In this document: piece by piece, positions 3,050 to 7,176 of the stretch
Layout of the letters: each line of letters begins with the position of its first letter
Numbering within the stretch: position 1 is the stretch's first letter
Assembly: GCA_016713865.1 (NCBI GenBank)
Contig: JADJOG010000045.1
Span: 34,898 to 98,897, forward strand
Origin: Flavobacteriales bacterium
GTDB taxonomy: Bacteria; Bacteroidota; Bacteroidia; Flavobacteriales_F; PHOS-HE28
Reading direction: 5' to 3'
Length of the DNA stretch: 64,000 bases
Notes under the pieces: model-generated
What the model saw: the letters and a program-made list of their open reading frames with translations, nothing else
The model's database searches: none
What the model was told of the DNA's origin: nothing
Program-made: the position numbers and the translations under genes

Positions 3050-4051
3050 ATGAAAACGATCGAACAACTCGCCCAAGAGCGCATCCTCGTCCTCGACGGC
3101 GCCATGGGCACCATGATCCAGAAGCTCGGCCTCACCGAGGAGGACTTCCATCCGCCCGGCATGGAGGACCACAAGATCCTGCTGAAGGGCAACAACGAGC
3201 TGCTCTCGCTTTCGCGGCCCGATGCCATCCGCACCATCCACGAGCAATACCTCGCGGCCGGCGCCGACATCGTGGAGACGAACACCTTCTCCGCCACCAC
3301 CATCGCGCAGGCCGAGCACGAATGCAGCCACCTCGCGCGTGAGCTGAACCTCGCCTCCGTGCGCCTCGCCAAAGAAGCTTGCGCGAAGTACACCGCCATG
3401 GATCCGAGCAAACCGCGCTTCGTGGCCGGCGCCATCGGGCCCATGAACAAGACCGCCTCGCTCAGTCCCGATGTGAACGACCCCGGCTACCGCGCCGTCA
3501 CCTTCGATCAACTTGTTGCTGCATACAAAGAGCAGGTGGAGGCCATGCTCGATGCCGACGTGGACATCCTGCTGGTGGAGACCATCTTCGACACGCTCAA
3601 CGCCAAGGCCGCCTTCTTCGCCATCGACGAGGTATTCCGAGGGCAGGGCACGCGCGTGCCGCTCATGTGCAGCGTCACCATCACCGATGCCAGCGGGCGC
3701 ACCCTCAGCGGCCAGACCATCGAGGCCTTCCTCATCAGCATGCAGCATGTGCCGCTCTTCAGCATGGGCCTCAACTGCGCGCTGGGCGCGGCCCAGATGC
3801 GGCCCTACCTGGAGGTGATCGCCGAGCAGAGCCCCTGCCGCGTGAGCGTTTACCCCAACGCCGGCCTGCCCGACCAGATGGGCGAGTACCGCGAAACGCC
3901 CGAGGTCACCGCGCGTCTCGTGGGCGAGTTCATGGCCAACGGCTGGGTGAACGTGGTGGGCGGATGCTGCGGGACGACGCCGGAGCATATCGCGGCACTG
4001 GCGAAGGAGGCGGGGAAACATGCGCCGCGGACAACACCGGTGCTGGCATGA
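3050..4051 (+). CDS. metH: methionine synthase homocysteine-binding module (Hcy S-methyltransferase domain) as a separate gene
   Basis: MKTIEQLAQERILVLDGAMGTMIQ... aligns to the MetH N-terminal Hcy-binding barrel over its whole length. It ends ...PEHIAALAKEAGKHAPR, the usual Hcy-module boundary. Confidence 0.85.
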   Translation: MKTIEQLAQERILVLDGAMGTMIQKLGLTEEDFHPPGMEDHKILLKGNNELLSLSRPDAIRTIHEQYLAAGADIVETNTFSATTIAQAEHECSHLARELNLASVRLAKEACAKYTAMDPSKPRFVAGAIGPMNKTASLSPDVNDPGYRAVTFDQLVAAYKEQVEAMLDADVDILLVETIFDTLNAKAAFFAIDEVFRGQGTRVPLMCSVTITDASGRTLSGQTIEAFLISMQHVPLFSMGLNCALGAAQMRPYLEVIAEQSPCRVSVYPNAGLPDQMGEYRETPEVTARLVGEFMANGWVNVVGGCCGTTPEHIAALAKEAGKHAPRTTPVLA

Positions 4052-4196
4052 ACGCTTCTTTCTTGGGTTGTTTGGGCGTGCCCCCTCGCAAAGCCTTGGG
4101 GTCGCGCTTTCCGCTGTACTCCTCGCTCGTTCCTCGCTGCGGGGTGCCGCTCCAATCGCTCACGCAATTTCGGCTCTGACCTGAAGTGATCGTCAC

Positions 4197-4640
4197 ATGA
4201 AGAAGGGCACACACGAGAAGAGCATCAGTGAACTCGAAGGCTGGACTTGGACGGACCCAATTCCCTCCGCTGATGACTCGTCCGGTACCGTGCTCCGCTT
4301 CTACCGACTCCACCGAACGCCGATCAAGGATCTGGATCTCGGTGATCTGAGGTTTCTGATCGGTCAGAACGCCGCGTTGGAGCACCTCGTGCCCATGGCA
4401 TTGGATCAACTGAGGAAGAACCTGTTCGTCGAAACAGACTACTACCCTGGTGACCTTCTTCAAGCTCTGTTCTCGATCAACGACGAACCGAGTTATTGGA
4501 CCGCACATCCGGATCATCGCCAGATATTGATCCGACTTTACGAGGACAACATGAGACAAACTCCAACTGTGGAGATGTCCTCAGGTGACTTGAAGAAGAT
4601 CGAACGTGAGTATGAGAAGTTCAAAGCACAGTTAGTCTGA
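4197..4640 (+). CDS. hypothetical 147-aa protein, lower-GC insertion between the two metH genes
   Basis: Intact ORF at about 52% GC in a ~65% GC background. It sits exactly between the Hcy-module gene and the pterin/B12 module gene. No confident family match; a small acidic helical protein. Confidence 0.55.
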
Positions 4641-4641
4641 C

Positions 4642-7176
4642 ATGTCCATCCCCACTTACTCCGGCCTCGAGCCCCTCCGCATCTTCCCGGGTTCCAACTT
4701 CGTCAACATCGGCGAGCGCACCAACGTCACCGGCAGCGCGGCCTTCCGCAAGCTGATCAAGAACGGCAACTACGATGAGGCCGTGAGCGTGGCCCGCCAG
4801 CAGGTGGAGAACGGCGCGCAAGTCATCGACGTGAACCTCGATGAGGGCATGATCGATGGCGTGGAGGCCATGCGCAAGTTCATCAACCTCATCGCCGCCG
4901 AGCCCGACATCGCGCGTGTGCCGGTGATGGTGGACAGCAGCAAGTTCAGCGTGATCGAGGCGGGCCTGAAGTGCCTGCAAGGCAAGGGCATTGCCAACAG
5001 CATCAGTTTGAAGGAAGGCGAGGCCGAGTTCCTGCGGCAAGCCAAAATCATCCGCCGCCTGGGTGCTGCCACCGTGGTAATGTGCTTCGATGAGCAGGGC
5101 CAGGCCGATAACTTCGAGCGACGTATCGCCATCGCCAAGCGCAGCTACGACCTGCTCATACGAAGTGCCGGCTTCGCAGCAGCATGATATCATCATCGAC
5201 GCGAACATCCTCACCGTGGCCACCGGCATGGCCGAGCACGATCGGTACGCCATCGACTTCATCGAGGCCGTGCGTTGGATCAAGCAGAACCTGCCCGGAG
5301 CGCTCACCAGCGGCGGTGTGAGCAACGTGAGTTTCAGCTTCCGCGGCAATGAGCCCGTGCGCGAGGCCATCCACACCGCTTTCCTCTACCACGCGATCAA
5401 GGCCGGGCTCGACATGGGTATCGTCAACGCCGGGCAGATCGGCGTGTACGACGATATCCCGAAAGACTTGCTGGAGCATGTGGAGGACGTGCTGCTGGCA
5501 CGTCGCCCCGATGCTACGGAGCGCATGGTCGCTTTCGCCGAGCAGTTCAAGGGCGCACCTTCCGCAGAGGCCGTGGCCGCGCAGGCCGCCTGGCGCGAAG
5601 GTTCCGTGGAAGAGCGCTTGAAGCACGCCCTGGTGCACGGCGTCACCGAGTTCATCGAAGCCGACACCGAAGAGGCCCGCGTGAAGTACGTGGACCCCGT
5701 GCTGGTGATCGAAGGTCCGCTGATGGCCGGCATGAACGTGGTGGGCGACCTCTTCGGCTCGGGCAAGATGTTCCTGCCGCAGGTGGTGAAGAGCGCCCGC
5801 GTGATGAAGCGCGCCGTGGCCTACCTCCGAACCTTCCTGCGAGGAGAAGAAGGCCGCGCAGGTGATCGGTACGCAGAAGGAGGGCGCGAAGAAGGTGCTG
5901 CTCGCCACCGTGAAGGGCGACGTACACGACATCGGCAAGAACATCGTGGGCGTGATCCTCGCCTGCAACGGCTGGCAGGTGATCGACCTGGGCGTGATGG
6001 TGCAGAGCGCCACCATCCTGAAGACCGCCCGCGAGATGCAGGTGGACATCATCGGCCTCAGCGGACTGATCACGCCCTCGCTTGATGAGATGGTACACGT
6101 GGCGAAGGAGATGGAGCGCGAAGGCTTCGAGACCCCGCTGCTGATCGGCGGCGCCACCACCAGCCGCGTACATACCGCCGTGATGAGGGCAGTCAGCGCG
6201 AGAAGGAGTACGTGCCGCTGGAAGAAGCGCGCGCGAAGAAGTTCTTGATCGACTTCGCCGCCGAGCCGCCCGTGGCACCCAAGAGCACCGGGGTCTTCAC
6301 CTACCGCAACTATCCGCTCGCTGAGTTGGTGCCCTACATCGACTGGACGCCCTTCTTCATGGCCTGGGAGCTGGCTGGCAAGTTCCCGCGCATCCTAGAG
6401 GACGAAGTGGTGGGCAAGCAGGCCACGCAGCTCTATGCCGATGCGCAGAAAATGTTGGACCGCATCGTGAAGGAGCAGTGGATCCAGGCGCATGGCGTCG
6501 CAGGCATCTGGCCGGCGAACACCATCGACCACGACGACATCGCGCTGTACGGTGATCCCGCCCGCACCAAGGTGGTCGGTCGCGTGCACTCACTCCGCCA
6601 ACAGAGCAAGAAGGCGCCCGGCGTTCCGTACATCGCCCTGGCCGATTTCATCGCCCCGGCCGGCACGCCCGACTTCCTGGGCGGCTTCGCAGTGAGCGCG
6701 GGCCACGGCGTCGACGAACGCGTGAAGCGCTTCGAGGCGGCGCACGACGACTATAGTGCGATCCTGCTGAAGGCCCTCGCCGATCGACTTGCTGAAGCCT
6801 TCGCCGAGAAGCTGCACGAAGTGGTACGTGAAGAGTTATGGGGCTACGAGACATCGCCCTTCACCAACGAGCAGCTCATCAAGGAGGAGTACCAGGGCAT
6901 CCGTCCGGCGCCGGGCTACCCCGCCTGCCCCGACCACACGGAGAAACCGGAACTCTTCCGCTTGCTCGATGCCACCAAGCACACCGGCATCACACTCACT
7001 GAGGGCCTCGCCATGAGTCCCGCCGCTGCGGTGAGCGGCTGGTACTTCGCGCACCCAAAGAGCAAGTACTTCGGCGTGGGCCGTGGGCCAGGACCAGGCG
7101 GGAAGACCTGGCGCGACGCAAGGGCGAGAGCATGGAGTGGATGGAGCGCTGGTTAGGGAGTAACCTGGCCTACTGA
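4642..7176 (+). pseudogene. metH: cobalamin-dependent methionine synthase (pterin-binding, B12-binding and AdoMet-activation modules), disrupted by several frameshifts and an internal deletion
   Basis: Homology to MetH continues across four ORF-track pieces in different frames (4642..5187, 5090..6085, 5862..6248, 6212..7156) and a further shift near 7085 before the native ...MEWMERWLGSNLAY stop at 7176. About 43 aa between the B12 domain (HTAV...) and the cap/activation region are missing. Confidence 0.7.

Follow-up and report, generated by a model that had tools for sequence, protein, structure and literature searches.

A split methionine synthase operon in a Flavobacteriales lineage with four reading-frame lesions in metH-C: consensus error or gene decay?

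Introduction

Does a gene whose reading frame is broken four times record the loss of a pathway, or an error in the assembled sequence? This question is raised by a methionine synthase locus within a window of 64,000 nucleotides (contig JADJOG010000045.1, forward strand), whose host would belong to an uncultured GC-rich Flavobacteriales lineage. By its predicted products the locus is an ordinary two-gene operon for cobalamin-dependent methionine synthase. MetH divided into two or three proteins exists (PMC7857596), and the two-gene form has been reported in Sphingomonas koreensis (Price et al., PMC7857596); a split MetH with a separate homocysteine (Hcy) gene is already a known architecture. 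In the intact system, the methyl group of methyl-tetrahydrofolate would be passed to cob(I)alamin on the metH-C product and from there to homocysteine bound by the separate metH-N protein. We describe the locus and its lesions and weigh whether these are real.

Results

Riboswitch leader and metH-N

The proposed order of the operon is SAM-I riboswitch, metH-N, a small cargo ORF (CdiI_3-like) and metH-C. The features preceding metH-C are the following:

2837..2950, plus strand: SAM-I (S-box) riboswitch aptamer in the operon leader (Rfam RF00162)
2987..3022, plus strand: terminator-like hairpin with T-run (consensus scan: stem of 11 pairs, 7 of them G-C, then TTTTTCATTT)
3050..4051, plus strand: metH-N, stand-alone homocysteine-binding (S-methyltransferase) module, intact ORF of 333 aa (Pfam PF02574)
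3637..3650, plus strand: compensated indel patch inside metH-N (alignment with relatives and with contigs from public read sets)
4067..4165, no strand assigned: conserved spacer element of ~100 nt, immediately 3' of metH-N (identity to L002, L008 and L012)
4197..4640, plus strand: CdiI_3-like ORF (contact-dependent-inhibition immunity family), 147 aa (Pfam PF18616)

The aptamer matches RF00162 over the full model (positions 1-108) with 88.4 bits, where the gathering score is 44.4 (E 1.2e-19). The hairpin sits 28 nt upstream of the metH-N start codon and is likely the putative expression platform of the riboswitch, a function that we infer; through this predicted riboswitch, SAM would switch off transcription of the operon. 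The arrangement resembles that of other methionine genes under SAM-I (S-box) riboswitches (RF00162) in having a full-length aptamer, which scores twice the gathering threshold, and after it a terminator-like hairpin immediately 5' of metH-N; no unusual feature is seen here. Both the aptamer (2837..2950) and the CdiI_3-like ORF (4197..4640) had been overlooked in an earlier, sequence-only reading of this DNA.

That reading had described the Hcy module as a clean stand-alone ORF, which is borne out by a near-complete match to the S-methyl_trans profile (PF02574, 8.1e-98, positions 1-282 of 283). The zinc-ligand motifs GLNCALG and GGCCGTTPEHI can be read in the translation. The Hcy module is likewise a separate gene in relatives, and more than 100 Flavobacteriales share a split MetH. 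Inside the ORF, the patch at 3637..3650 reads TTCCGAGG-GCAGGGC (F-RGQ-G) in the window and TTC-GAGGAGCGGGGC (F-EER-G), or an E-A-R variant, in relatives. The window's +C and -A are absent from all seven aligned relatives (7/7), and also from L081 and L082, two contigs drawn from two public read sets that match the window at 99.4% identity across 1149 nt and on this similarity are probably of the same species. The patch could be a real strain difference.

The spacer and its cargo ORF

The two-gene architecture described earlier holds. The halves are not neighbours: the CdiI_3-like ORF at 4197..4640 (PF18616, 1.6e-20, 73.3 bits against a gathering cutoff of 28) separates them, its stop codon lying 1 nt before the metH-C ATG. 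An identical protein in the same context was found only in three independent short contigs of 0.6-1.1 kb, ending at 4731, before the first metH-C lesion. A metagenome scan with the CdiI protein returned one 1.4-kb contig (L084) with an 83% homologue, again in the same context. Flanked as it is by metH-N and metH-C, the ORF has no cognate CdiA or polymorphic toxin gene beside it; on the opposite strand, an RHS-repeat ORF is found at a distance of 6 kb. If it is an immunity gene at all, it would, judging by these neighbours, be an orphan.

The conserved element at 4067..4165 is 82-98% identical to the equivalent position in L002, L008 and L012, while the remaining spacer differs. It has no second copy within the window and folds no better than shuffled sequences (z -0.18). 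Among relatives the spacer between metH-N and metH-C is hypervariable, from 140 to ~900 nt with differing ORFs, and a Pfam search of the relatives' cargo ORFs gave no match. The junction could conceivably be a cassette-like insertion hotspot in which unrelated small ORFs, including a CdiI-like immunity gene, ride on SAM-regulated transcription, though we think this improbable.

Segments and lesions of metH-C

Frame pieces of metH-C were mapped by tblastn with the intact homologues P0001, P0002 and P0006, which gave five collinear pieces, and lesions were called from a nucleotide alignment with five relatives (L001, L002, L003, L012 and L005). Exactly four gaps in this alignment are particular to the window: +1 at 5178/5179, +1 at 5827/5828, -148 nt after 6182, and -1 at 7085. 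The gene is then composed as follows:

4642..7176, plus strand: metH-C, whole, in successive frames 1/2/3/2/1
4642..5178, plus strand: segment 1, frame 1, first part of the pterin-binding domain (Pterin_bind profile 1-164 of 244)
5179, plus strand: lesion 1, one additional base (window-only gap; window GCAGCAGCA, relatives GGCTTCGC-GCCGCACGA)
5180..5827 (tblastn piece from 5183), plus strand: segment 2, frame 2, remaining pterin-binding domain and B12 cap (Pterin_bind profile 164-244; B12-binding_2 3e-25; tblastn)
5828..5845, plus strand: lesion 2, additional C (CCTC-CGAA) followed by a patch (window-only gap, alignment column 1185)
5829..6182, plus strand: segment 3, frame 3, B12-binding Rossmann domain (B12-binding 1.1e-20, profile 2-99 of 121)
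6182..6185, plus strand: lesion 3, junction of the 148-nt deletion (148-column window-only gap against L001, L002, L003, L012 and L005)
6185..7084, plus strand: segment 4, frame 2, reactivation (AdoMet-binding) domain (Met_synt_B12 1.4e-114, profile 2-259 of 273)
7085..7105, plus strand: lesion 4, one base lost (window CGTG-GGCC, relatives CGCGTGGCC; window-only gap, alignment column 2594)
7087..7176, plus strand: segment 5, frame 1, last 29 codons, ending ...EDLARRKGESMEWMERWLGSNLAY*, and stop at 7174..7176 (three-frame translation; tblastn tail HSP)

Pfam, tblastn and the alignment agree with the earlier description of a second gene that carries the pterin, B12 and activation modules and is broken four times in frame. 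Segments 1, 3 and 4 correspond to residues 1-179, 396-513 and 564-863 of P0001, with 96.6, 97.5 and 93.7% identity (tblastn), and GDVHDIG, GLSGL and IGGATTS are read directly in segment 3. Catalytic motifs are intact in metH-C, including RPAPGYP. A segment had been reported missing, and it is absent; its size, however, is 148 nt (~49 codons plus 1 nt) and not the ~43 aa or 130 nt proposed. The deletion, spanned by a tblastn HSP gap from residue 513 to 564, removes residues 514-563 of the 895-aa P0001, which close the B12 domain and link it to the activation domain; no clear direct repeat was found at its junction.

Most indels lie outside long homopolymers. The patch after lesion 2 reads EPSC where relatives have EPFL, and possibly holds two further compensating indels. 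In the patch at 7085..7105, three-frame translation recovers the conserved 'DQ' only in a third frame. Inspected by eye, 5828-5845 and 7085-7105 may each contain three compensating indels and not one.

Across metH-N and the frame pieces, the five Pfam modules appear in order (S-methyl_trans, then Pterin_bind, B12-binding_2, B12-binding and Met_synt_B12). Amino acid identity is 90-94% with over 100 proteins of Flavobacteriales MAGs that carry a methionine synthase annotation, and members of the ten nearest protein clusters are at most 93.7% identical. The locus thus resembles the two-gene MetH of many Bacteroidota and of Sphingomonas koreensis in module set and order, with a ~333-aa Hcy gene and then a ~893-aa gene. 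It differs in that the second gene, found as five frame pieces and not as a single uninterrupted ~893-aa frame with a complete B12 domain, is broken four times, lacks 49 codons and is preceded by the intervening CdiI_3-like ORF.

Selection on the frame-corrected gene

Conservation was assessed in an alignment of 107-108 homologues, of which the window covers 438 near-invariant columns. Frame-corrected metH-C departs from the consensus at 2 of the 438, both within the patch at 7085, and at both another frame restores the conserved residue; intact homologues deviate at 1.4 such columns on average and the frame-corrected gene of L005 at one. The dN/dS between window and relatives (0.078-0.099) compares with 0.069-0.108 for intact relatives among themselves. 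Of the marks of a decaying gene, metH-C has the disrupted reading frame but shows, once frame-corrected, no sign of relaxed selection, which a long decay with at least four indels would be expected to leave. In E. coli mutation accumulation, roughly 10 substitutions arise per indel, so four indels imply ~40 substitutions, of which ~15 would strike invariant codons. With ~15 expected, two or fewer such changes have a Poisson probability of 4e-5; substitutions in metH-C are too few, which argues against real decay.

Lesions elsewhere in the window

At least six further gene-breaking lesions affect four other well-conserved genes of the window. A (6-4) photolyase is split at 23645, where residues 24-333 and 341-536 of PDB 7ykn match two overlapping ORFs; a 3,260-aa PKD/CHU_C adhesin is split three times (~35135, ~37040 and ~38712) within its own repeat motif; a TPR paralogue shows a frame change at ~44558 together with ~60 missing aa; and a CHU_C domain has TGA at 18819 in place of its conserved Trp. 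The S9 peptidase, Mfd, an OmpA-like gene, a TolC-like gene and most other genes are intact. The earlier control, that other long genes are clean, is right for S9 peptidase and Mfd, but it is not general, as other genes of the window are broken. Lesion density is nevertheless uneven, with four in the 2.5 kb of metH-C against ~1 per 9.5 kb in the rest of the window (Poisson P ~2e-4): metH-C is a local lesion hotspot. Uniform random error does not explain this clustering, and a local cause must therefore be assumed. We noticed neither IS elements nor other signs typical of genome decay in the window.

Several candidates were set aside. The CPD photolyase/Cry-DASH-like gene at 24275..25549 ends inside the FAD_binding_7 profile, but has no visible continuation in another frame; NuoE/NuoF, rhaM/MFS and the remaining pairs of overlapping TPR paralogues appear to be normal gene boundaries. 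A link to methylation motifs was not used: 3 or 4 of ~10 single-base lesions have a GATC or CCWGG site no more than 4 nt away, compared with 12% of window positions, but this comparison was made post hoc and is weak. On its own, the GC3 frame plot carried too much noise to detect frameshifts.

Independent sequence and errors in a relative

Look-ups of exact products (metH-N, three ORFs created by frameshifts, the OmpA-like neighbour, PorP and the CPD photolyase) gave no match. A second protein search, with a 293-aa query across lesions 2 and 3, gave nothing but shorter proteins, 76% identical at best. Together with the metagenome scan, these searches yielded no same-strain sequence over any of the four metH-C lesions. 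Sequence with 99.4-99.8% identity to the window does occur in the samples of public runs ERR1356722 and ERR1352925 and in that behind ERZ15185901. In the nearest relative, L005, metH-N and metH-C contain four 1-nt frameshifts, different from those of the window. The contig names of L005 are of the Canu-style 'tig' form, and it is apparently a nanopore MAG.

Discussion

We judge, at a probability of roughly 0.58, that most or all metH-C lesions are errors of the assembled consensus and not evolutionary decay. This reading is favoured because relaxed selection is absent, with normal dN/dS, intact motifs and few substitutions; because like lesions break other conserved genes in the window; and because independent contigs disagree at the metH-N patch and L005 shows a similar pattern. 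The source would be a long-read-based MAG with local polishing trouble in a strain-variable region, where we infer both the platform and the origin of the errors. Residual long-read errors are known to fragment genes (PMC9262707 and PMC12007338), and a pipeline of Canu, Racon, medaka and one Illumina Racon step has been published (PMC8012365). The window resembles such nanopore assemblies in its indel-dominated lesions, in genes that are otherwise perfectly conserved and in the involvement of several unrelated genes, and the Canu-type MAG L005 shows a like phenomenon in the same genes at other positions. The window differs, however, in two deletions of more than 100 nt and in 1-nt events mostly outside long homopolymers. 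The metH-C hotspot counts against the error reading, as do the 148-nt deletion and the ~60-aa TPR gap, which are atypical for base-calling errors; among the lesions, the strongest case for a real one is the 148-nt deletion.

The earlier inference from lesion density to genuine pseudogenisation is weak, since other genes are broken too, selection is not relaxed and independent contigs contradict the patch in metH-N. A genuine and very recent pseudogenisation, in which metH-C is truly lost, perhaps by the 148-nt deletion first, as part of a genome-wide burst of inactivation affecting ~10% of the window genes, while metH-N is not yet hit or still useful, is possible but in our estimate unlikely. 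Large deletions and nonsense codons are typical of real bacterial pseudogenes, and the lesions found here (1-nt indels, a nonsense codon and two deletions exceeding 100 nt) fit the spectrum of recent ones; metH-C is significantly richer in lesions than the rest of the window, as for a gene freed from selection, and S9 peptidase, Mfd, the OmpA-like and TolC-like genes and most others are intact. The frameshifts, the deletion and the nonsense codon elsewhere in the window also recall the loss of metH or metE in auxotrophic or host-restricted lineages, but, unlike these, the window has no detectable relaxed selection, no lesions shared with relatives and no involvement of mobile elements. A normal dN/dS without excess amino acid change at the 438 near-invariant positions is hard to square with at least four fixed indels if the mutation spectrum is normal; moreover, the indels are bunched in ~20-nt patches, contigs from public read sets contradict the comparable metH-N patch, and no IS elements or decay hallmarks were noticed in the window. 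Still less probable, we believe, is a mixed origin, with a real 148-nt deletion (possibly in a sub-population) and single-base indels and patches that are consensus errors from reads of co-existing strains. It would agree with single-base patches falling on positions variable among relatives, with a hypervariable spacer that would create assembly bubbles, and with large deletions not being typical base-calling errors, but neither a clear flanking repeat nor any other signature marks the deletion.

Two other readings take the breaks as they stand. That the lesions are real, the folate/B12 half having been discarded and the SAM-riboswitch-controlled Hcy module kept as a stand-alone homocysteine methyltransferase with another methyl donor or corrinoid protein (e.g. 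S-methylmethionine or glycine-betaine-linked systems), is a very doubtful idea, separate from that of the cassette-like junction. We give almost no credence to a metH-C that works despite its breaks, through programmed frameshifting or as several interacting polypeptides: MetH is modular, with two- and three-protein forms (PMC7857596), but the breaks interrupt domains (5179 cuts the pterin barrel and 6182 the B12 Rossmann fold) at points shared by no relative, the deletion costs 49 conserved residues, and slippery sites and start codons are absent at the junctions.

Here, two intact genes were an insufficient control against sequence error. Real lesions would leave the organism auxotrophic for methionine or dependent on MetE, which is common and no surprise. 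Should they be errors, as we favour, metabolic reconstruction would wrongly score B12-dependent methionine synthesis as lost in this organism, and likewise the photolyase and the adhesin.

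Organization of the split metH region

We found that a SAM-I riboswitch opens the region and that the methionine synthase modules are divided between metH-N, the homocysteine (Hcy) module gene, and metH-C, the broken second gene.

Features of the metH region
2837..2950, SAM-I riboswitch (Rfam 88.4 bits; gathering score 44.4)
2987..3022, terminator-like hairpin and T-run 3' of the riboswitch
3050..4051, metH-N, complete homocysteine S-methyltransferase module ORF (Pfam 8e-98)
4197..4640, 147-aa ORF matching the CdiI_3 immunity family (Pfam 1.6e-20), separated from metH-N by a 145-nt spacer
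4642..7176, metH-C, Pfam matches to Pterin_bind (profile positions 1-164 and 164-244), B12-binding_2, B12-binding and Met_synt_B12 (1.4e-114)

The pterin-binding domain begins at 4642, one base past the stop of the CdiI_3-like ORF, and all the remaining MetH modules follow in canonical order, distributed over several ORFs in differing frames. A previous sequence-only reading had already described metH-N as an intact stand-alone ORF, in agreement with its complete domain. More than 100 homologues of metH-C from Flavobacteriales MAGs have around 893 aa and contain only pterin, cap, B12 and activation domains, and the related loci encode the Hcy module separately, in an upstream gene.

Lesions in metH-C and in other genes

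When intact homologues were used as tblastn queries, metH-C appeared in five collinear pieces (frames 1, 2, 3, 2 and 1), and residues 514-563 of an 895-aa homologue had no match in the window. A nucleotide alignment with five related loci (L001, L002, L003, L012 and L005, the nearest relative) contains exactly four gaps private to the window.

Private lesions of metH-C
5178/5179, +1 base
5827/5828, +1 base
after 6182, -148 bases (49 codons plus one base)
7085, -1 base

These are the four sites proposed from the sequence alone; a missing stretch had also been recognized, although its size was underestimated at about 43 aa. On visual inspection, both 5828-5845 and 7085-7105 look messy, and since the family-conserved EP / FL / EKK and GR / A / DQ / EDLARRKG can be read there only with frame hopping, each stretch may hold three indels rather than one.

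The sequence-only reading considered the S9 peptidase and Mfd genes free of frameshifts, as they are, and took this cleanness as an argument for decay of metH-C. That argument does not extend to the whole window, where four other genes are also broken.

Other broken genes
17349..18950, PKD/CHU_C protein, in-frame TGA (18819..18821) in place of the conserved CHU_C sorting-domain Trp (NIQ*DG)
22699..24278, (6-4) photolyase / FeS-BCP gene, split, one base missing at 23645 (CGG C-G ATC) inside the conserved FIRQIIGW motif
29864..39641, giant T9SS adhesin (~3,260 aa, K319L-like PKD repeats, C-terminal CHU_C), reads as four ORFs
44132..45383, first of five TPR paralogues, frame change at ~44558, ~60 residues shorter than its paralogues

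Past the TGA, about 40 further codons of the CHU_C domain can be read without a frame change. The photolyase ORFs (22699..23958 and 23667..24278) overlap and match residues 24-333 and 341-536 of PDB 7ykn, and the adhesin repeat motif (ADAGPDQELC...) changes frame at ~35135 (a GGGG run), ~37040 and ~38712. The adhesin is followed by PorP/SprF (39685..40620) and an OmpA-family gene; the TPR paralogues, of ~480-530 aa each and 43-67% mutual identity, lie in tandem at 44132..51215. The remaining 57 kb contain about six lesions that break genes. Lesion density is 4 per 2.5 kb in metH-C vs ~1 per 9.5 kb elsewhere in the window (P ~2e-4).

Independent contigs and the nearest relative

The identical CdiI protein is encoded on three short contigs from public data (L081 to L083), which share 99.4-99.8% identity with 3583..4731 and end before the metH-C lesions. 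Their few differences from the window are mostly concentrated at 3637-3650 of metH-N, where a +C and a -A of the window, at a distance of six bases, change F-EER-G to F-RGQ-G. Neither indel is present in two of the contigs or in any of the seven aligned relatives. This patch is of the same kind as those of metH-C, and it is contradicted by independent data, though the strains may truly differ here.

L005, the closest locus by nucleotide, belongs to a MAG whose contigs are named 'tig...', in Canu style. By this naming scheme, the MAG presumably fits an activated-sludge nanopore MAG set. The pipeline of that set comprised Canu, Racon, medaka and one Illumina Racon round (PMC8012365). L005 (8000..11832) has private 1-nt indels, two insertions in metH-C and two deletions close to where metH-N ends, and a further gene is split upstream (~5792..6422). 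Its own frameshifts indicate that such a density in these genes occurs in a long-read MAG with an otherwise conserved protein, making L005 a useful control for error-type frameshifts. In another relative, L006, metH-C has an apparent ~110-nt insertion in the activation-domain region (11438..11551), and its last ~108 codons are apparently present again ~2 kb downstream (14233..14556).

A hypervariable spacer between metH-N and metH-C

Among relatives the spacer ranges from 140 nt (L005) to ~900 nt (L002) and carries unrelated small ORFs.

Spacers between metH-N and metH-C
Window, 4052..4641, CdiI_3-like ORF (likewise in L084)
L001, 9036..9787, 163-aa membrane protein
L003, 8994..9706, 163-aa membrane protein
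L002, 8997..9854, lipoprotein-like ORF of ~170-220 aa (likewise in L008)
L006, 8985..9414; L012, 815..1486; L014, 8278..9098, other ORFs
L005, 9000..9142

Apart from the CdiI_3-like ORF, no Pfam match was found for the relatives' spacer ORFs. No toxin gene adjoins the CdiI_3-like ORF; an RHS-repeat-matching ORF (10715..11623, minus strand) lies 6 kb from this orphan gene. Directly 3' of metH-N there is a conserved non-coding element of ~100 nt (4067..4165), found at the same position with 82-98% identity in L002, L008 and L012. It has no second copy in the window and no Rfam family, and its fold is no better than those of shuffles. In some fused Rufibacter MetH proteins (P0110, P0116), precomputed Pfam annotation adds DUF559 and REase_MTES_1575 beside the MetH modules.

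Sequence error or gene decay

Frame-corrected metH-C, aligned with 106 full-length homologues, covers 438 of the 450 near-invariant columns and deviates at 2. Both of these lie in the 7085 patch and regain the conserved D-Q in an alternative frame. The average for intact homologues is 1.4 deviating columns, and the frame-corrected L005 gene has 1. Pairwise dN/dS of 0.078-0.099 for the window against four relatives resembles that of intact relatives among themselves (0.069-0.108), and all catalytic motifs are intact. Drift long enough to fix at least four indels should bring many substitutions too. Mutation-accumulation work in E. coli gives ~10 substitutions per indel, and at this ratio ~15 changes at invariant codons would be expected (P(<=2) ~4e-5). 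The scarcity of such changes implies that the lesions are either extremely recent or not of evolutionary origin, and the long-term decay claimed by the sequence-only reading is not supported.

We favor, with a probability of roughly 0.6, that the metH-C lesions are consensus or assembly artefacts. A plausible local cause would be the hypervariable spacer, which in a strain mixture may disturb assembly and polishing. A genuine and very recent loss of metH-C is less likely. In its favor, the clustering of the lesions calls for something local, neither the 148-nt deletion nor the gap in the TPR gene is typical of base-calling error, and frameshifts, deletions and a nonsense codon together have the look of recent bacterial pseudogenes. 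A combination of a real deletion with erroneous single-base indels is more doubtful still, and functional recoding of any sort is very improbable. The proteins nearest to metH-C of the window are only 92-94% identical, and an intact gene from the same species is not among them.

The combination of a SAM riboswitch with a split metH is already known biology, and the gene layout of the homologues shows the split itself to be the normal state in this clade.
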